Below are positions 33 to 36,497 of a stretch of DNA of 64,000 bases, piece after piece. Each line of letters opens with the position of its first letter. Within the stretch, counting starts at the first letter, position 1. A program made the translations under genes and the position numbers. Under the pieces are notes generated by a model. It saw only the letters and a program-made list of their open reading frames with translations. It had not been told where the DNA came from and ran no database searches. This DNA is from Escherichia coli. Its GTDB lineage: Bacteria > Pseudomonadota > Gammaproteobacteria > Enterobacterales > Enterobacteriaceae. The DNA lies in the NCBI RefSeq assembly GCF_002854065.1, contig NZ_CP024147.1; one strand, 5' to 3'.

Positions 33-1718
33 TTATCCTAATCCTGGCCATACCATGACGATGATTGTCCCTGCCAGCGTCAGCAGGACGTTGGCGATTG
101 CATAGGTGCCCGCATAGCCCAGCGCCGGGATGTTACTGCGAGCTGTATCACTGATGATCTCCATTGCCGGCGCGCAGGTGCGTGCGCCCATCATTGCGCC
201 GAACAACAGTGCGCGGTTCATTCGCAATACATAAGCACCGAACAAGAAACAGATAACTACGGGCACCAGACTGACAATCAATCCGGCAATCAACATCTGG
301 CCGCCAATCGCGCCCAGGCCGTTATTAATACCGCTACCGGCGCTCAGACCAACGCCTGCCATAAACACCATCAAGCCGAACTCTTTCACCATGCTTAATG
401 CACCTTGCGGAATGTAACCGAAGGTCGGGTGGTTAGCACGCATAAAGCCCAGCATAATTCCGGCGAATAACAACCCGGCAGCGTTCCCCATGCCGAAACT
501 GAATGTGCTGAACTGGAAGGTGATCATCCCGATCATCAGCCCAATAACAAAGAAGGCGCAGAATGCCAGCAGGTCAGTGACCTGGCTGTGAATCGAGATA
601 AAGCCGATGCGATCGGCGATGGTTTTTACGCGGCGGGCATCGCCGCTGACTTGTAAAACGTCACCTTTGTTAAGCACGACGTTGTCATCTATCGGCATCT
701 CAATCTGGCTACGAATGACGCGGTTAAGGAAGCAACCGTGATCGGTCAACTTCAGTTGTGCGAGACGTTTGCCAACGGCGTTATGGTTTTTAACGACCAC
801 TTCTTCAGTGACGATACGCATGTCGAGAAGGTCACGATCGAAAACTTCTTTACCGTTACGGAAGCTGGGATCGAGTCGGGCATGGGCGTCGGGATAGCCT
901 ACCAACGCTATTTCATCGCCCATTTGTAGCACGGCATCACCGTCTGGATTTGCCAGAATCCCGTTACGTCGAATACGTTCAATGTAGCAGCCGGTTTGTC
1001 GATAAATACCCAGTTCACGCAGATTTTTGCCGTCGGTCCAGGCCACCAGCTCCGGGCCGACGCGGTAGGCGCGGATCACCGGTAAATAAACTTTACGGTT
1101 GGCATCAGTGTCCAGGCCACGTTCGCGGGCGATTTGCTGGGCGCTGGTCTGTAAGTCCTGATGCTGCAATTTCGGCAAGTAACGCGCACCAACAATCAAA
1201 CTCACCAGACCGATTAAATAGGTTAAGGCATACCCGAGGCTCAGATTATCCAGTGCCAGTGCGAGCTGCCTGCTTTCCATACCGGAATGACGCAGTGTAT
1301 CGCCAGCACCGACCAGAACCGGTGTCGACGTCATAGAGCCTGCTAACATACCGGCCGTCAGGCCAATATCCCAGCCAAACAGCTTACCTAACCCTAAGGC
1401 GATCACCAGCGCACTGCCAACCATCACCAGTGCTAACATTAGGTAATTTTTCCCATCGCGAAAAAAAATGGAAAAAAAGTTCGGTCCGGCTTCGACCCCG
1501 ACGCAGAAAATAAACAGCATAAAGCCAAGATTAAGCGCATCGGTGTTAATGCTGAAATGTTGTTGGCCTAATAACAGCGATACGACTAAAACGCCAATGG
1601 AATTACCCAGTTGGATCGAACCAAGTCGTAACTTTCCGAGACATAGCCCAAGCGCGAGGACCACAAATAATAACAGAATGTAATTCCCATTTAACAATTC
1701 GGCGACGTTTATATTCAC
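33..1718 (-). CDS. ybjL: Putative AAE-family transporter YbjL (561 aa)
   Basis: Full-length ORF with membrane domains flanking a central soluble region; recalled identity and position next to ybjM/grxA. Confidence 0.85.
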
Positions 1719-11841: not shown

Positions 11842-13944
11842 ATGTTTGCCAAATTCATAGATGTTATTCAAACGTTTTTAACTGAACCGGCAATTTTAAT
11901 TGGTTTGCTGGTGGGTATTGGTTATGCCCTTGATAAGAAATCGCCAATAAAAATTATTACCGGCATGGTCAGCGCCATGGTGGGATTAATGATGGTGTTA
12001 TTTGGTGGTTTCCAGTTTTCCGCAACATTTAAACCGGTAGCAGAAGCCGGGTGATGCTGCCAACTTACTGATTTAGTGTATGATGGTGTTTTTGAGGTGC
12101 TCCAGTGGCTTCTGTTTCTATCAGCTGTCCCTCCTGTTCAGCTACTGACGGGGTGGTGCGTAACGGCAAAAGCACTGCCGGACATCAGCGCTATCTCTGC
12201 TCTCACTGCCGTAAAACATGGCAACTGCAGTTCACTTACACCGCTTCTCAACCCGGTACGCACCAGAAAATCATTGATATGGCCATGAATGGCGTTGGAT
12301 GCCGGGCAACCGCCCGCATTATGGGCGTTGGCCTCAACACGATTTTCCGCCATTTAAAAAACTCAGGCCGCAGTCGGTAACCTCGCGCATACAGCCGGGC
12401 AGTGACGTCATCGTCTGCGCGGAAATGGACGAACAGTGGGGATACGTCGGGGCTAAATCGCGCCAGCGCTGGCTGTTTTACGCGTATGACAGGCTCCGGA
12501 AGACGGTTGTTGCGCACGTATTCGGTGAACGCACTATGGCGACGCTGGGGCGTCTTATGAGCCTGCTGTCACCCTTTGACGTGGTGATATGGATGACGGA
12601 TGGCTGGCCGCTGTATGAATCCCGCCTGAAGGGAAAGCTGCACGTAATCAGCAAGCGATATACGCAGCGAATTGAGCGGCATAACCTGAATCTGAGGCAG
12701 CACCTGGCACGGCTGGGACGGAAGTCGCTGTCGTTCTCAAAATCGGTGGAGCTGCATGACAAAGTCATCGGGCATTATCTGAACATAAAACACTATCAAT
12801 AAGTTGGAGTCATTACCCAGAAGCCGTAAGTAAAGCCTATGGTGTTCACGGATATTTAATGGATTCCTACGCAATGAAAGCGGCAACGCAAATTGCATTG
12901 GGGGATAATTTTGGTTATGTCGGGTATGTATTTGTACTGGCGTTTTTTACCAACCTGCTGCTGGTATTATTTGGTCGGTATACTGGTGCCAAAGGGATAT
13001 TTTTGACAGGGAATACCGGTGTTTCACATTCTCAGGCGGTATTATGGTTGATTGTCTTTTGGCTGGGTTTTAGCTGGACTACATCCATTATTATTGCCGG
13101 AATATTAACGGGTGTATTCTGGGCGTTCTTCACCACGCTCATTGTTAAGCCCATTGCCAAAGTTACCAAAGATGCCGGTTTTACCATTGCTCATAACCAG
13201 ATGTTGGGATTGTGGTTTTTCTCCAAATTCGCCCATAAATTTGGTGACCCTGAAAAGCACGATGCTGAAAACCTGAAACTTCCCGGGTGGCTGGCGATTT
13301 TTAACCATAACGTAACGGCTATCGCCATTGTGATGACGCTGTTTGTCGGTGGTTTCTTGCTATCAACGGGTATCGATAATGTCCAGTTAATGGCGAAAGG
13401 CAAGCCCTGGTACATCTATATCATCAACCTTGGCTTACAGTTCTCCATGTATATGGTCATTCTGCTGCAGGGTGTGCGCATGATGGTGGGCGAAATTAAC
13501 GGTTCGTTTAAAGGCTGGCAAGATCGCTTTATTCCTAACGCTATTCCTGCTGTCGATGTTGCAGCGCTGTTACCTTTTTCACCCAATGCCACAACGTTAG
13601 GCTTCGTCTTCTGTACTTTTGGCACCATTTTTTCGATGGGGATCTTATTACTGGTTCACAGCCCAATTATGGTATTGCCTGGCTTTGTACCTCTGTTTTT
13701 CTCTGGCGGTCCAATTGGCGTATTAGCAAACCGCATGGGCGGATACCGTTCCGTAATTATCTGTACGTTCTTGCTGGGTATTATTCAGACCTTTGGTACG
13801 GTGTGGGCTATTCCGTTAACCGGGCTTGCTGAAAATGGCGTCGGCTGGACAGGAATATTTGACTGGGCAACCGTATGGCCTGCTATTTGTGAAGTTCTGA
13901 AATTTATCGCTGCAACATTCCATCTTGGTCCTTACGCGGGTTAA
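11842..13944 (+). pseudogene. PTS ascorbate-family (UlaA/SgaT-like) EIIC, split by an IS1 insertion
   Basis: ORFs 11824..12054 and 12859..13944 both resemble UlaA; removing IS1 plus one TSD copy (777 bp) restores one in-frame ORF of about 441 aa; start codon 11842 vs 11824 uncertain. Confidence 0.8.
12050..12817 (+). mobile_element. insAB: IS1 copy 1 (768 bp) with 9-bp target-site duplication CAGAAGCCG
   Basis: Terminal inverted repeats ggtgatgctgccaacttactgat / ...aagttggagtcattacc; insA 12105..12380 and insB 12299..12802; identical 9 bp at 12041..12049 and 12818..12826. Confidence 0.95.
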
Positions 13945-14297: not shown

Positions 14298-16556
14298 ATG
14301 AGAGCGATTATTCTGCTGTTCGATAGTCTGAATAAACGGGTAATGACTCCAACTTATTGATAGTGTTTTATGTTCAGATAATGCCCGATGACTTTGTCAT
14401 GCAGCTCCACCGATTTTGAGAACGACAGCGACTTCCGTCCCAGCCGTGCCAGGTGCTGCCTCAGATTCAGGTTATGCCGCTCAATTCGCTGCGTATATCG
14501 CTTGCTGATTACGTGCAGCTTTCCCTTCAGGCGGGATTCATACAGCGGCCAGCCATCCGTCATCCATATCACCACGTCAAAGGGTGACAGCAGGCTCATA
14601 AGACGCCCCAGCGTCGCCATAGTGCGTTCACCGAATACGTGCGCAACAACCGTCTTCCGGAGCCTGTCATACGCGTAAAACAGCCAGCGCTGGCGCGATT
14701 TAGCCCCGACGTATCCCCACTGTTCGTCCATTTCCGCGCAGACGATGACGTCACTGCCCGGCTGTATGCGCGAGGTTACCGACTGCGGCCTGAGTTTTTT
14801 AAATGGCGGAAAATCGTGTTGAGGCCAACGCCCATAATGCGGGCGGTTGCCCGGCATCCAACGCCATTCATGGCCATATCAATGATTTTCTGGTGCGTAC
14901 CGGGTTGAGAAGCGGTGTAAGTGAACTGCAGTTGCCATGTTTTACGGCAGTGAGAGCAGAGATAGCGCTGATGTCCGGCAGTGCTTTTGCCGTTACGCAC
15001 CACCCCGTCAGTAGCTGAACAGGAGGGACAGCTGATAGAAACAGAAGCCACTGGAGCACCTCAAAAACACCATCATACACTAAATCAGTAAGTTGGCAGC
15101 ATCACCGAATAAACGTTATCTGCCACCTTATGGCGATGCGTTAACCAAAGCGCCTAATTTCCAACGTCTGGCGGCTCATGCCGCCACCTTTGAAAACAGT
15201 TACGTCGGCAGTATGCCGTGTATGCCTGCCCGGCGGGAGTTGCATACCGGGCGATGTAACTTCCTGCATCGGGAGTGGGGGCCGTTAGAACCGTTTGACG
15301 ATTCCATGCCGGAGCTGCTTAAAAAGGCGGGGATCTATACCCACCTGATAAGCGATCATTTGCATTACTGGGAAGATGGCGGCGGGAATTATCATAATCG
15401 CTACAGTTCGTGGGAGATTGTGCGCGGACAGAAAGGCGATCACTGGCATGCAAGCGTTGCGCAACCGCCTATTCCCGAGGTGCTACGGGTGCCGCAAAAG
15501 CAGACCGGTGGCGGTGTTTCTGGTCTGTGGCGCCATGACTGGGCAAACCGGGAATATATTCAGCAGGAAGCGGATTTTCCACAAACTAAAGTGTTTGATG
15601 CAGGCTGTGCCTTTATCCACAAAAATCACGCGGAAGATAACTGGTTATTGCAGGTCGAAACGTTTGATCCGCACGAGCCGTTTCACACAACGGAAGAGTA
15701 TCTTTCCTTGTATGAAGATAACTGGGATGGACCGCATTATGACTGGCCGCGTGGCCGGGTGCAGGAAAGCGACGAGGCCGTGGAGCACATCCGTTGCCGG
15801 TATCGTTCGCTGGTGTCGATGTGCGATCGCAACCTGGGGCGCATTCTCGACCTGATGGATGAGCACGATCTGTGGCGAGATACCATGCTGATTGTCGGCA
15901 CTGACCACGGCTTTTTACTCGGTGAGCATGGCTGGTGGGCGAAAAACCAGATGCCTTATTACAACGAAGTTGCCAATAATCCGTTGTTTATCTGGGACCC
16001 GCGCAGTGGTGTAAAAGGAGAGCGGCGACAGGCACTGGTACAAATGATCGACTGGGCGCCAACGTTGTATGACTTTTTTCAACAGCCAGTGCCGCCCGAT
16101 GTGCAGGGGCAACCGCTGGCGAAAACGGTCAGTCACGATGAACCAGTACGCAGCTCGGCGATGTTTGGTGTCTTCAGTGGTCATGTTAACGTAACTGATG
16201 GGCGTTTTGTCTATATGCGTGCAGCGCTGCCGGGGCGTGAGGATGATATTGCCAACTACACGTTGATGTCCTGCAAAATGAACAGCCGCTATCCGGTGGA
16301 TGAGATGCGGGCTTTATCGCTGGCCCCACCGTTTCGTTTTACCAAAGGGTTACAGGTATTACGCATCCCGGCACAGGAAAAATATAAGGGGTTGAATCAG
16401 TTTGGTCATTTGCTGTTTGAGCTGCAAAACGATCCGCAGCAGCTACATCCGATTCATGATGATGTGATCGAGTCCCGGATGATCGCGTTGCTGATTCAGT
16501 TGATGAAAGATAATGATGCGCCGCCAGAGCAGTTTCAGCGCCTGGGATTAGCGTAG
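14298..16556 (+). pseudogene. Cys-type (formylglycine-dependent) sulfatase, split near its 5' end by an IS1 insertion
   Basis: ATG at 14298 encodes MRAIILLFDSLNKR, then IS1, then the ORF resumes in frame (YLPPYGDA...); sulfatase signature C-M-P-A-R-x4-T-G present; no signal peptide. Confidence 0.8.
14339..15106 (-). mobile_element. insAB: IS1 copy 2 (768 bp, reverse orientation) with 9-bp target-site duplication GAATAAACG
   Basis: insB 14354..14857 and insA 14776..15051 on the minus strand; identical 9 bp at 14330..14338 and 15107..15115. Confidence 0.95.
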
Positions 16557-17511: not shown

Positions 17512-17655
<144 letters not shown>

Positions 17656-20752: not shown

Positions 20753-21268
20753 TTAGCGATTCTCGATGGACTGACGGAGCGTACCCGCCGTGGCATGAAC
20801 GCTACCGCCTAAGTAGCGCACATCGTCGATCACCCAACACTGGCCTTCCTGAATCATTAACACTTCATCCTGCCAGCCCTGGTCACCCTGCTTGAGATCC
20901 ACGCGCAATGGAATGTTACGGGCATCACGATTAGGGATAGTCGATGCACTGGCAACGTGGGCGCTGTCTGGCAAGGTGGTTCGACTGGAGAACGGATCGC
21001 TGCTTAACAATTCACGATGACTATTATCGCGGCTGGCATCGCTAAGTAGGGTTGCCAGTTTGTCACTCAAATAGGGGCGCAGGGCGGTAATGTCATTGCT
21101 GCGATGTTGAATGCGGTAGTCATAGAATTGTTGGGCTACGCTGTCAGGCCCCCCCTGGACACAGGAACCGGTGCGGGGACCGTTATCTTTATAAGCTGGC
21201 GTGACGGTGGTACAGGCACTCAGCAGCAGTGCACATGGAATAAGTAGAGATAGTGAACGGTAGCGCAT
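20753..21268 (-). CDS. ybjP: Lipoprotein YbjP
   Basis: Lipobox LLLSAC after a signal peptide; synteny after artP. Confidence 0.8.
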   Translation of the reverse strand: MRYRSLSLLIPCALLLSACTTVTPAYKDNGPRTGSCVQGGPDSVAQQFYDYRIQHRSNDITALRPYLSDKLATLLSDASRDNSHRELLSSDPFSSRTTLPDSAHVASASTIPNRDARNIPLRVDLKQGDQGWQDEVLMIQEGQCWVIDDVRYLGGSVHATAGTLRQSIENR

Positions 21269-21891
21269 AATCATTTCCTTATTAGCTTGCTGTCTGCGTC
21301 ACACTACGACCAAACGCTATCAGATTATTTAATACATTGTTTTTAATACAATTCTGAAACAATCTGAACACCTGATTGGGTTTGAGTCCATTGCTGGCTA
21401 CCCACTCAAGGTTGCTCGTAGCTGACTTACTTAAATTACCCAAACAATAGACAGTGTAAACCATTTGTGAGGTTGAGCGTGTTATATGGCTGAAATGATC
21501 ATTTAAGGTAAATATGATAGTTCTGAAATGGTGGTATAAATCCTCCTGTAGAGGTTAAGAGCATCTGCAAGAAGCCAGTTTCACATTTATAACGCGTGAT
21601 AAATGAACGCGGTTATTGTCTAATCATTACAAATTTTTCACATGCGATAAGAGATCCTGCTATTAAGATGATTGCCAAAATTACGTTGTATTTTTGAAAA
21701 TGAGCGAAATTTGATAGTCCCAGCTTTGACTTTTGATAATATTATTTATGTTACAGTTGTGGGTATAAAATATAATCTTTTTGAACAAGTGAATTTGAGC
21801 GAAGAATAAATCAAGTTGTTTCAGTGTTTCGTTAATTAATATGAGTATAAAAGGTGTTGTGCTTTTACAATAATAAAGCGCGAGGAGTTCG

Positions 21892-22661
21892 GTGGATTAT
21901 CGTTTTTCTTGGGTGATTTTTAATATGATAAACAATATATCTGATCAAGCGTCATCATTTCCATGCACACAATTGAATCAAAGTGATAATTTCCTCGATT
22001 CACTGAGGGAATTTTTCGCGATATTAAATTCCAGTCGTAAGGGTGAGTTGTCTACATGGGATACCATCTACTTGCATCTGATATTAGCAATAAATGCTGA
22101 CAGTGATCTCATAAAAAATGATGTGTTGCTCGCGGAAAATATTCCAACAGCGGATTATCAATTTAATACATTTTTAGTAATGCTTTCGAGACTGATGTTA
22201 AAAAATATCTGGGTAAATCAGAAGATAACGAAGTTGAAATAAAAACGGGTAATGAAAGAATCTCTATTGGAATACGTAACATATCGAATGGAAAACTTGA
22301 AAGACAAAAGTTTCTTTTCCCACTGGACTATGAGAATAAATTACAACATCAATTAGACAAGCATTTTACGATTGAATCGCACCCATTATTATACAGGCAT
22401 ACTATGGGTAGTAAGATTGCGAATGTGATTTTTGAAAAATTATACAGTCGTATTGACTTTAACAAAGAACAATATATATCCTTTATAAAGGACGCGTTTC
22501 TTCATTTTTATGATTATAGCAGGCGATATGCAATTAATGAGAATATTGCAAAAGACGCTGTAACAAACAATATCGCATTGATGAGCACTTTTTATGACAG
22601 TGATAATACGTCAGGTGAGGTTTTAAATAATGATTTTACAGAAGAGTCATTTGAAACTGCG
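21892..22661 (+). pseudogene. 5' fragment of an AT-rich gene of unknown function: frameshifted, then truncated by IS1
   Basis: ORF 21892..22242 (frame 1) overlaps an open frame-0 segment 22167..22661 that runs into the IS1 end; possible GTG start with a gaggag Shine-Dalgarno. Confidence 0.4.
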
Positions 22662-23429
22662 GGTGATGCTGCCAACTTACTGATTTAGTGTATGATGGTG
22701 TTTTTGAGGTGCTCCAGTGGCTTCTGTTTCTATCAGCTGTCCCTCCTGTTCAGCTACTGACGGGGTGGTGCGTAACGGCAAAAGCACTGCCGGACATCAG
22801 CGCTATCTCTGCTCTCACTGCCGTAAAACATGGCAACTGCAGTTCACTTACACCGCTTCTCAACCCGGTACGCACCAGAAAATCATTGATATGGCCATGA
22901 ATGGCGTTGGATGCCGGGCAACCGCCCGCATTATGGGCGTTGGCCTCAACACGATTTTCCGCCATTTAAAAAACTCAGGCCGCAGTCGGTAACCTCGCGC
23001 ATACAGCCGGGCAGTGACGTCATCGTCTGCGCGGAAATGGACGAACAGTGGGGATACGTCGGGGCTAAATCGCGCCAGCGCTGGCTGTTTTACGCGTATG
23101 ACAGGCTCCGGAAGACGGTTGTTGCGCACGTATTCGGTGAACGCACTATGGCGACGCTGGGGCGTCTTATGAGCCTGCTGTCACCCTTTGACGTGGTGAT
23201 ATGGATGACGGATGGCTGGCCGCTGTATGAATCCCGCCTGAAGGGAAAGCTGTACGTAATCAGCAAGCGATATACGCAGCGAATTGAGCGGCATAACCTG
23301 AATCTGAGGCAGCACCTGGCACGGCTGGGACGGAAGTCGCTGTCGTTCTCAAAATCGGTGGAGCTGCATGACAAAGTCATCGGGCATTATCTGAACATAA
23401 AACACTATCAATAAGTTGGAGTCATTACC
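22662..23429 (+). mobile_element. insAB: IS1 copy 3 (768 bp) without a target-site duplication
   Basis: Flanks are gaaactgcg (left) and agtaatctc (right); insA 22717..22992, insB 22911..23414; insB has an H-to-Y change relative to copies 1 and 2. Confidence 0.95.
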
Positions 23430-24092
23430 AGTAATCTCTATTTATCACACACTGTTGTGAATGAAAGTATATTGAAGAAATGTTGTTTTGAAAACGGCAG
23501 TTTAGGTGATGTTAAAATAACAAATAGCAATATAATAAATAATGTATTCAAAAATATTTCGTTTAGATCTGTTAAAATTAACAACGTAAATACTCATTCT
23601 TTAAAATTTATTAACTGCAATTTTTTCAATGTTGATATGATAAGAGTTAATTTCAGTAAATGTCTTTTTCATGACTGTAGTATGCATGGTGTCAAGATAA
23701 AACCATAGTTGCCAGTAAAATGGACAAAAGAGTTAATAAATGATTATTTGTATGGCTGTTTACTCTCTCTGTACTCTATCTGTGCAAGAGATATATATAA
23801 TATGATCGCCGGGAATAACGTGAAGGTTGCTGCGGATGCTTTCCTTGAAATACTTTATTCTCTTAAAAATAAATATTGTATTAAACTATTAAGCGCTCAG
23901 GATCGGGCGTTTATATACGAATTTGCAAGAATGATCTTCGCTTATATTAATGACAAAAGCATTGAGATCTTATTACTTTCTTGTTTTGCGGCGGCTGACC
24001 AAAAAGCAATCCAGCGGTATATACCTCAGGCGCAAGATGGGGAAGACTTTAGGAATCATTTACAATATAAGTTGACTCTTCCCACTCATTAA
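23430..24092 (+). pseudogene. 3' fragment of the same or an adjacent AT-rich gene: pentapeptide-repeat-like region with an in-frame amber stop at 23706..23708
   Basis: Frame 0 is open from the IS1 boundary; ORFs 23457..23708 and 23709..24092 are in the same frame separated only by TAG; repeat-like stretch NVFKNISFRSVKINNVNTHSLKFINCNFFNVDMIRVNF. Confidence 0.4.
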
Positions 24093-24302
24093 TATTGCCG
24101 GCACAACATAATAGGGCAGGTAAGCGGTGCTCCATAATGAAACCAATATCCGGTTACGAAACAGATAATTGTACAGGCTTATGTACCTGTTTTTGACACA
24201 ATGAGATGATTTCCTAAACTGATCAAAACCTTCTTCCCAACATGGCATATCAGTCCGATAATGCTTTAGAGATCGAAGGCTTAACAAACAAGGAGATCGA
24301 TC

Positions 24303-35024: not shown

Positions 35025-36497
35025 TTAATTACGTTTTTCCAGCAGGGTCCGGTAAATCAGACCACCGATAATGCCGCCGACAATTGGCACCACCCAGAAG
35101 AACCACAGTTGTTCTAATGCCCAGCCGCCCTGGAAGATGGCAACCGCGGTGCTGCGCGCCGGGTTAACAGAAGTGTTAGTCACCGGAATACTGATTAAGT
35201 GAATCAGGGTTAAGGCCAGACCAATAGCGATCGGCGCAAAACCTGCCGGAGCGAATTTGTCGGTTGCGCCGTGGATCACCAACAGGAAACCTGCACTCAA
35301 TACCAGTTCAACTACCAGCGCGGAAAGCATGGAATAACCGCCTGGTGAATGCTCGCCATAACCGTTAGGGTGATGCTGCCAACTTACTGATTTAGTGTAT
35401 GATGGTGTTTTTGAGGTGCTCCAGTGGCTTCTGTTTCTATCAGCTGTCCCTCCTGTTCAGCTACTGACGGGGTGGTGCGTAACGGCAAAAGCACTGCCGG
35501 ACATCAGCGCTATCTCTGCTCTCACTGCCGTAAAACATGGCAACTGCAGTTCACTTACACCGCTTCTCAACCCGGTACGCACCAGAAAATCATTGATATG
35601 GCCATGAATGGCGTTGGATGCCGGGCAACCGCCCGCATTATGGGCGTTGGCCTCAACACGATTTTCCGCCATTTAAAAAACTCAGGCCGCAGTCGGTAAC
35701 CTCGCGCATACAGCCGGGCAGTGACGTCATCGTCTGCGCGGAAATGGACGAACAGTGGGGATACGTCGGGGCTAAATCGAGCCAGCGCTGGCTGTTTTAC
35801 GCGTATGACAGGCTCCGGAAGACGGTTGTTGCGCACGTATTCGGTGAACGCACTATGGCGACGCTGGGGCGTCTTATGAGCCTGCTGTCACCCTTTGACG
35901 TGGTGATATGGATGACGGATGGCTGGCCGCTGTATGAATCCCGCCTGAAGGGAAAGCTGCACGTAATCAGCAAGCGATATACGCAGCGAATTGAGCGGCA
36001 TAACCTGAATCTGAGGCAGCACCTGGCACGGCTGGGACGGAAGTCGCTGTCGTTCTCAAAATCGGTGGAGCTGCATGACAAAGTCATCGGGCATTATCTG
36101 AACATAAAACACTATCAATAAGTTGGAGTCATTACCAACCGTTAGAAGCAAAACCGCTGGCTGCCGCGTCAAAACCCGTTTTACCACTGGCAATTAAATA
36201 CAGCAGCGCCGCTGCAACAATACCGCCGACAACCTGGGCAATTACGTAGCCAACGACTTCTTTTGCCGGAAAACGTCCGCCAGCCCATAAACCAATAGTG
36301 ACCGCCGGGTTAAAATGACCACCAGAAATATGACCAACAGCGAAGGCCATCGTCAGAACGGTCAAACCGAATGCCAGCGCCACGCCGGCAAAACCAATGC
36401 CTAATTCCGGGAAGCCTGCGGCCAGTACAGCACTACCACAGCCACCAAAAACAAGCCAGAAAGTACCAAAACATTCAGCTGCTAATTTTCTGAACAT
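35025..36497 (-). pseudogene. aqpZ: Aquaporin Z, interrupted by an IS1 insertion
   Basis: N-terminal part 36137..36497 ([13 protein letters not shown]... with NPA) and C-terminal part 35025..35368 (...second NPA...RTLLEKRN) on the minus strand, separated by IS1. Confidence 0.9.
35369..36136 (+). mobile_element. insAB: IS1 copy 4 (768 bp) with 9-bp target-site duplication AACCGTTAG
   Basis: Identical 9 bp at 35360..35368 and 36137..36145; insA 35424..35699, insB 35618..36121 with an R-to-S change. Confidence 0.95.

Follow-up and report, generated by a model that had tools for sequence, protein, structure and literature searches.

Expansion of insertion sequences (ISs) and pseudogenisation are documented for Shigella (PMC7373316). 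Among the effectors tabulated for Escherichia coli O157, the EspX proteins are listed as EspX1-7, and the gene described here is not among them (PMC2323221, PMC5931665); EspX3' corresponds to ECs4654/4655 at another locus (PMC5931665). We analyzed a 64-kb stretch of E. coli DNA, termed the window in the following, in which an AT-rich islet between ybjP and ybjQ carries the remnants of a pentapeptide-repeat gene together with a copy of IS1. A previous sequence-only reading of this region had suggested that the islet was horizontally acquired and had regarded its coding content as one degraded gene. According to our results, the segment is with high confidence the non-functional relic of a single-gene islet, in which the gene succumbed to ordinary decay through an IS1 insertion, a deletion, a premature stop codon and slippage in a homopolymer.

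The evidence for a single ancestral gene comes from islets in which it is intact. All six E. coli islet sequences that were read, which come from a pig isolate, O157:H7 493/89, O157:H7 TW14359, an ivory-gull isolate, an ST38 isolate and strain AST240 (together sequences L001-L004, L012, and L013), contained one uninterrupted open reading frame (ORF) of 599 or 600 codons. The window was collinear with this ORF at 99.3-99.4% DNA identity between positions 21250 and 22661 and at 98.3-98.4% between 23430 and 24320. Since the segments to either side of IS1 can be laid collinearly onto one and the same ORF at this chromosomal position, the fragments are parts of one gene, as the sequence-only reading had proposed; the two sides of IS1 do not stem from different genes, and a repeat domain is present (see below). 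The comparison of ybjP-ybjQ synteny that had been suggested there thus located the intact allele and gave the size of the deleted piece as 366 bp. The gene starts with a GTG codon at position 21892, which is preceded at a distance of 4 nt by the Shine-Dalgarno sequence GAGGAG (21882-21887). The ratio of nonsynonymous to synonymous substitution rates (dN/dS) was 0.13-0.23 among the E. coli alleles, at synonymous divergences (dS) of 0.10-0.18. In comparison with the 73%-identical allele L016 it was 0.22 (505 codons) and below 0.32 in each of three regions. These ratios indicate that the intact alleles are under purifying selection and, together with the strong Shine-Dalgarno sequence in front of the GTG codon, they led us to count the gene as real. 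Its protein cluster comprises more than 6000 member sequences, and carriers of the intact gene include O157:H7 (TW14359 and 493/89), O55:H7, ST38, and S. sonnei; the O157:H7 and O55:H7 strains keep a 599-aa ORF. The window copy therefore qualifies as a pseudogene, as a constrained intact orthologue exists and disabling lesions can be mapped.

These lesions, positioned relative to the intact 600-codon allele L001, are listed in Table 1 together with the remaining parts of the reading frame. The shift of the N-terminal ORF into frame 0, which had been seen in the sequence alone, is caused by a run of five instead of six T residues (T5 instead of T6). The interruption by IS1 was also described correctly: the ancestral frame reopens directly behind the element, with 23430 as the first position of codon 381. 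The in-frame amber codon ahead of the distal stop replaces a tryptophan codon, and Trp473 is kept in all intact alleles including the diverged ones. What our analysis adds to this picture is a 366-bp deletion beside IS1, by which 122 codons (259-380; L001 2917-3282) are missing at the junction. A one-codon difference (GAA/GAG) at codon 250/251 is common to the window and the 599-aa allele of O157:H7 and, as it is shared with an intact allele, represents a polymorphism and not a lesion. With respect to the T-run, the Logan contig L009 was informative. It is identical to the window over 3.28 kb including the IS1 junction, but has T6 and an extra A at 22276, indicating either that the T slip is later than the IS1 event or that one of the assemblies contains a homopolymer error. 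T5 was also found in L007 (1226) and L008 (763), two contigs of different allelic backgrounds. The exact 116-aa product of the frameshifted N-terminal ORF is on record in NCBI, and two ORF fragments of the window have exact recorded copies.

Table 1. Features of the islet between ybjP and ybjQ, with positions in the window.
Feature	Position	Strand	Basis or remark
AT-rich islet including IS1	21288..24244	n/a	Borders from alignment to K-12; replaces ~55 bp of the ybjP-ybjQ spacer
AT-rich non-coding leader/promoter region of the islet	21288..21891	+	Sequence reading
Codons 1-93 in the ancestral frame, GTG start	21892..22170	+	Collinear with L001 (from 2143) and L002 (from 2143)
116-aa ORF from the native start: ~94 native and ~22 out-of-frame residues, TAA at 22240-22242	21892..22242	+	ORF list
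T5 instead of T6, -1 frameshift at codon 94/95	22171..22175	+	Alignment; intact alleles read ACA TTT TTT AGT
Codons ~96-258, out of frame with the start, ending at the IS1 junction	22176..22661	+	Alignment
IS1, 768 bp; insA 22717..22992, insB' 22911..23414	22662..23429	+	Sequence, repeat comparison
Codons 381-472, surviving pentapeptide-repeat segment, ~18 of ~21 pentads	23430..23705	+	Pfam, pentad periodicity, AlphaFold2/Foldseek
Amber codon TAG in place of TGG (Trp473) through a G-to-A exchange at 23707	23706..23708	+	Alignment
Codons 474-600, predicted helical C-terminal domain, natural TAA at 24090-24092	23709..24092	+	Alignment, structure prediction

The inserted element is a typical IS1 with respect to its length of ~768 bp, its terminal inverted repeats GGTGATGCTGCC...GGAGTCATTACC and its insA/insB' ORFs, and it is annotated in RefSeq as IS1-like/IS1B family transposase. 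It is one of four IS1 copies in the window and 99.7-99.9% identical to the other three. Whereas these three are flanked by perfect 9-bp target duplications (CAGAAGCCG, GAATAAACG, and AACCGTTAG), the islet copy lacks a duplication, its left flank being GAAACTGCG and its right flank AGTAATCTC. With the three other copies as controls, this structure corresponds to an IS1 with an adjacent deletion, and the 366 bp missing at the junction explain the loss of the 9-bp duplication. The same IS1 junction was not found in any of the complete E. coli genomes of RefSeq. In five complete genomes of E. coli, IS1 is inserted at other positions of this islet, and in strain MEW (L003 1710-2477) it is located in the non-coding leader, ~430 bp upstream of the intact ORF. 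The other copies in the window are located at 12050-12817, 14339-15106, and 35369-36136 and, in comparison to O157:H7 Sakai, interrupt an ECs_0940-like transporter gene, the start of an ECs_0942-like sulfatase gene, and aqpZ. Over 48 kb the window is 98.3-99.0% identical to the Sakai genome. Judged from its sequence, the window has the profile of a Shigella-type lineage, and the islet allele is closest to those of phylogroup-E E. coli.

In K-12, the spacer between ybjP and ybjQ comprises 125 bp, of which ~55 bp are swapped for the islet in the window; the islet is absent from K-12 MG1655. The order of the surrounding genes (artJ-artM-artQ-artI-artP-ybjP, islet, ybjQ-amiD-ybjS-ybjT-ltaE-poxB) follows that of the E. 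coli backbone. The GC content of the islet after removal of IS1 (21288..22661 and 23430..24244, 2189 bp) is 0.332. In the rest of the window, 567 segments of equal size have a mean of 0.516 with a standard deviation of 0.022 and a minimum of 0.46, which corresponds to a z value of -8.2 for the islet. The codon-usage comparison with the flanks, which the sequence-only reading had left to be made, gave a similar result: the GC content at third codon positions is 0.30 in the islet gene vs. 0.56-0.62 in ybjP, ybjQ, amiD, artP, and ybjS. The AT-rich character of the segment noted from the sequence alone is confirmed by these values. In a survey of 5,426 complete E. coli genomes with an islet-only query and a coverage of at least 80%, the islet was found in 1122 genomes, once per genome. 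Low GC content and presence/absence polymorphism are compatible with horizontal acquisition, as the sequence-only reading had suggested. This interpretation is limited by two observations: neither a mobility gene nor a tRNA gene was found in or beside the islet among the ORFs and the neighbouring annotation, and the same ybjP-ybjQ site is occupied in a diverged Escherichia lineage, so that any acquisition would have to be old. Promoter-like hexamers in the leader (21672-21740) are consensus matches only. No credible match to an RNA family of Rfam was obtained in the islet, and a terminator scan of it found none. At the left edge of the islet, a 60-aa ORF on the minus strand (21282-21464) terminates 8 nt ahead of the start codon of ybjP. 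This ORF is also conserved in L001, at 1533..1715, and has no family match (best NCBIfam E value 0.15). Outside the islet, 37 bases more than in O157:H7 Sakai are present in the artJ-artM intergenic region (17619-17655).

The sequence-only reading had also noticed a pentapeptide-repeat-like stretch behind IS1, which we could assign to known families. The 92-residue fragment encoded by 23430..23705 matched the Pfam models PF13599 (Pentapeptide_4), PF00805 (Pentapeptide), and PF13576 (Pentapeptide_3) with E values of 8e-4 to 1e-3. In the intact protein, pentapeptide repeats were the only Pfam domains found (residues 367-470; PF13599, E 2e-4). The first position is F, L, I, V, or M in 20 of 21 consecutive pentads and the third position in none of them, so that both the family models and the hydrophobic centre residue place the segment among the pentapeptide repeats. 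Based on the sequence periodicity, 21 pentads would form roughly five coils of a quadrilateral beta-helix. The ancestral protein is predicted to be soluble, with ~600 residues organized into an orphan N-terminal region of ~365 aa, the beta-helix (~366-472), and a helical tail of ~128 aa. Its N-terminus does not resemble a signal peptide on inspection, and no membrane segment was found (highest Kyte-Doolittle mean over 19 residues, 1.26). The AlphaFold2 model of the full-length intact protein was unusable, with a predicted local distance difference test score (pLDDT) of 40. For residues 360-600 the pLDDT was 62 (65-80 over the repeats), with continuous short strands followed by four or five helices; the helices were predicted at residues 480-594 of the intact protein. 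A Foldseek search of the PDB with this part gave beta-helix proteins only, namely the SV2 luminal domain, SopA, NleL, HalA, Qnr, and MfpA, and all matches were weak (best E value 7e-4, template modelling (TM) scores 0.2-0.37).

Outside its repeats the protein is an orphan. A phmmer search of 1.84 billion cluster representatives (50% identity) yielded a single cluster that matched over the full length, in addition to fragments of this gene; all other matches were confined to the repeat region (E ≥ 5.6e-11). No match outside the repeats was obtained with NCBIfam, PADLOC, PHROGs, or the PDB sequences; residues 1-365 and 473-600 searched separately against NCBIfam gave no match, and the PDB sequence search returned only beta-helix proteins with E values of at least 0.09. 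No homologue was found outside Escherichia/Shigella beyond the repeats. Among the GTDB representatives (one genome per species), a scan with six exact peptide patterns, which may miss relatives of ~70% identity, detected only L011, an E. coli-like contig in a metagenome-assembled genome (MAG). This 2,972-bp contig (JAIJJM010000403.1, 'MAG: Collinsella sp.') carries a 96%-identical copy of the gene with a stop at codon 390 and is almost certainly a mis-binned E. coli contig. In the literature searched, no mention was found of ECs0949, ECs0950, or a pentapeptide gene between ybjP and ybjQ.

The gene has been inactivated repeatedly. In O157:H7 Sakai (L014 18690-20496), the 7-bp sequence AAATAAC is tandemly duplicated within the repeats, at codon 408, which splits the gene into ECs_0949 (413 aa, NP_308976.1) and ECs_0950 (a 96-aa ORF); this duplication is absent from TW14359 and 493/89. 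In a diverged, cryptic Escherichia lineage (L015 3291-6327; GCA_036681175.1, 4.37-Mb contig), whose flanks are 93.7-94.6% identical to K-12, the islet is found at this site as well; its allele of the gene is 71% identical and is cut near codon 524 by an IS3-family element (HTH_Tnp_1 and rve ORFs). The metagenome contig L016 has T8 vs. an in-frame T7 at the matching T-run (L016 2073; L015 3467). The homopolymer at codons 94-95 thus appears to be a recurrent slippage site, which may be a hot spot of mutation or may serve as a crude switch. Altogether, the gene has been disabled independently by at least four routes, as would be expected of an accessory gene that is dispensable under some conditions. 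In a comparison of L001 with L016, the dS of the islet gene is 0.63 and the protein identity 73%, whereas for the adjacent ybjP the dS is 0.14 and the proteins are identical. This indicates that the islet alleles are much older, or diverge faster, than their flanks. Within E. coli, the highest dS (0.41) was found in the C-terminal 128 codons. These divergences point to deep or mosaic allelic lineages at the islet gene.

In every genome inspected, the RefSeq annotation (PGAP) calls the gene a pseudogene ('incomplete; missing C-terminus') that ends at codon 413. The flagged spans are 2143-3381 in L001, 2143-3378 in L002 and L004, 2911-4149 in L003, 1215-2453 in L012, and 1212-2450 in L013. Because codon 413 corresponds to the length of the frameshifted ECs_0949 and the ORF is intact beyond this point, the flag looks like an artefact of a truncated reference protein, ECs_0949. 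The gene may have escaped study partly through such flags on intact copies.

Taken together, the window copy can be explained by three or four independent hits on the gene. IS1 presumably transposed into the coding sequence, and the adjoining 366 bp were lost together with the 9-bp target duplication, which may reflect either a deletion mediated by IS1 itself or recombination between a pair of IS1 elements; the resulting structure itself is seen directly in the alignment. A G-to-A exchange converted Trp473 to the amber codon, and a T6-to-T5 slip, which probably followed the IS1 event, caused the frameshift at codon 94/95. From the original GTG start, only the 116-aa product and no functional protein should now be translated. 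Regarding the role of the intact protein, our best guess, which we consider possible but doubtful, is that of an effector-like, protein-binding scaffold in the interaction with a host or a competitor. If this was correct, the loss in the window would be another case of decay of a dispensable gene during the genome reduction of Shigella-type lineages.

Several points weigh against this explanation of the window copy and the guess attached to it. The T5 frameshift may be a homopolymer miscall in the source assembly, since L009 shows T6; T6 instead of T5 would not rescue the gene, as IS1, the deletion and the amber codon would still be present. The amber codon is known from this one isolate of the lineage. 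Three ORFs of 83, 94, and 127 aa are left over, from which peptides might in principle be expressed. Finally, with respect to the functional guess, the protein has no homologues outside the repeats and its full-length model reached a pLDDT of only 40.

A further reading of the intact gene, which we consider unlikely, is that of an unrecognised, fast-evolving, effector-like protein involved in host interaction or conflict, for which the T6/T7 run could even act as a crude on/off switch. The two orphan domains around the beta-helix, the restriction to Escherichia/Shigella, the polymorphic presence, the deep allelic lineages, the repeated knock-outs and T-run slips in at least three backgrounds were noted beside this possibility.

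Another explanation is that the ancestral gene encoded a type III secreted effector similar in kind to EspX/SopA/PipB2 that has so far gone unrecognised, with the beta-helix as a module for binding host proteins. Its loss in the window would then be pathoadaptive or due to a changed secretion repertoire. The gene forms an AT-rich single-gene islet in the backbone, and its product of ~600 aa lacks both a signal peptide and a membrane segment; espX2 is laid out alike. The faster evolution compared to the flanking ybjP and the recurrent pseudogenisation would agree with such a role, and SopA and NleL are among the weak Foldseek matches (E 0.02-0.05, TM 0.3). However, these matches are accounted for by the shared beta-helix alone, the helix is located in the C-terminal third and not near the N-terminus, and a HECT-like domain was not detected. 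Furthermore, the gene is missing from the O157 effector lists of PMC2323221 and PMC5931665, and ECs0949/ECs0950 were not found in the literature searched. An identity with EspX2 was rejected: espX2 is located between rhlE and dinG, the best BLASTP E value was 0.93, and the family models that recognize EspX2, NF007264 (SopA family, E 3.7e-9) and NF011904 (HECT-type effector, E 1e-23), did not match the islet protein even at E ≤ 1. PipB2 contains the C-terminal motif LFNEF for kinesin recruitment. In the islet protein this motif is absent, the nearest string being FIYEF, and no effector model of NCBIfam matched at E ≤ 1. The link to EspX/PipB, which the sequence-only reading had offered tentatively and flagged as unconfirmed, is thus not supported by these comparisons. 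Membership in the EspX/SopA family is not supported by the sequence, while an effector-like mode of action is possible by analogy; altogether, we regard this explanation as improbable.

Equally improbable in our view is that the ancestral gene was a single-gene anti-phage or conflict system or a DNA mimic similar to Qnr/MfpA, of which the window copy was lost as dispensable. The variable presence, low GC content, rapid evolution and deep allelic divergence at the locus would fit such a role. In addition, the NCBIfam model of the Hailong effector HalA gave a weak match (E 2.6e-5, 23.6 bits, residues 416-468), three PHROG families matched at E ≤ 1e-3 in the repeat region only, and Qnr, MfpA, and AlbG are among the fold and sequence matches. 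On the other hand, PADLOC reported 0 matches, and the HalA score covers only the repeats and is far below the cut-off of 250 bits. Neither a gene for the partner HalB nor a membrane segment is present in this single-gene islet, and a Hailong or other known defence system was rejected on these grounds. Qnr-type proteins are dimers of ~200 aa that consist entirely of repeats, whereas the islet protein has ~21 pentads between orphan regions of 365 and 128 aa; the NCBIfam Qnr model scored 9.9 bits compared to a cut-off of 240. We rank an effector-like or host-interaction scaffold slightly above a role in defence or DNA mimicry, each of them having a low probability.

It is very improbable that a promoter within IS1 or inside the gene drives expression of a surviving fragment, such as the 83-aa beta-helix ORF (23457..23708) or the 127-aa tail ORF (23709..24092), and that this fragment has retained a function: both ORFs exist and promoter-like hexamers occur at 23444-23473 and 23578-23607, but the number of promoter-like sites (18 vs. 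11.2 ± 3.7 in shuffled sequence) is within ~2 standard deviations, the ORFs start with GTG or TTG with no evident ribosome-binding site upstream on reading, neither exact product is recorded among 15 billion proteins, and the 83-aa fragment is too short for a capped beta-helix with flanking domains.

The window copy itself matters little, since it adds another IS1-driven pseudogene to those of Shigella-type genomes, and the locus is already labelled in public annotation as a pentapeptide-repeat pseudogene with IS1. The intact gene is of modest interest as a constrained, uncharacterised accessory gene that is limited to Escherichia/Shigella and present in about a fifth of the complete E. coli genomes. 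The locus also illustrates, within a short segment, how one gene can be inactivated repeatedly and independently through four mutational routes. Should the protein be a secreted effector or a defence factor, a new family would be added.

Compared with known systems, the window copy comes closest to the ECs_0949/ECs_0950 pair of Sakai, an orthologue at the identical position with 98-99% DNA identity that is a pseudogene, too. The pair belongs to a strain-specific loop between ybjP and ybjQ, and the RefSeq name is 'pentapeptide repeat-containing protein'. The two differ in their lesions: the Sakai gene is broken by the 7-bp duplication, the window copy by IS1 with the 366-bp deletion, the amber codon and the T-run slip. 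EspX, SopA, and NleL (EspX7) share with the islet protein a pentapeptide-repeat module, which in the latter is predicted to form a beta-helix, a size of ~600-670 aa, the lack of a signal peptide and a location in AT-rich single-gene islets of the backbone. The islet protein differs from them in having no similarity outside the repeats and in the position of its helix in the C-terminal third. Qnr, MfpA, AlbG, and McbG have the right-handed quadrilateral beta-helix repeat that is predicted for the islet protein, but these proteins of ~180-220 aa consist almost entirely of repeats, which in the islet protein are embedded between large orphan domains. The mode of inactivation corresponds to that by IS1 with adjacent deletion in Shigella, where a coding sequence likewise contains an IS1 that lacks its target duplication and the neighbouring DNA. 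In this respect the window copy shows nothing unusual, the only notable detail being the length of the deletion, which is divisible by three and removes precisely 122 codons.

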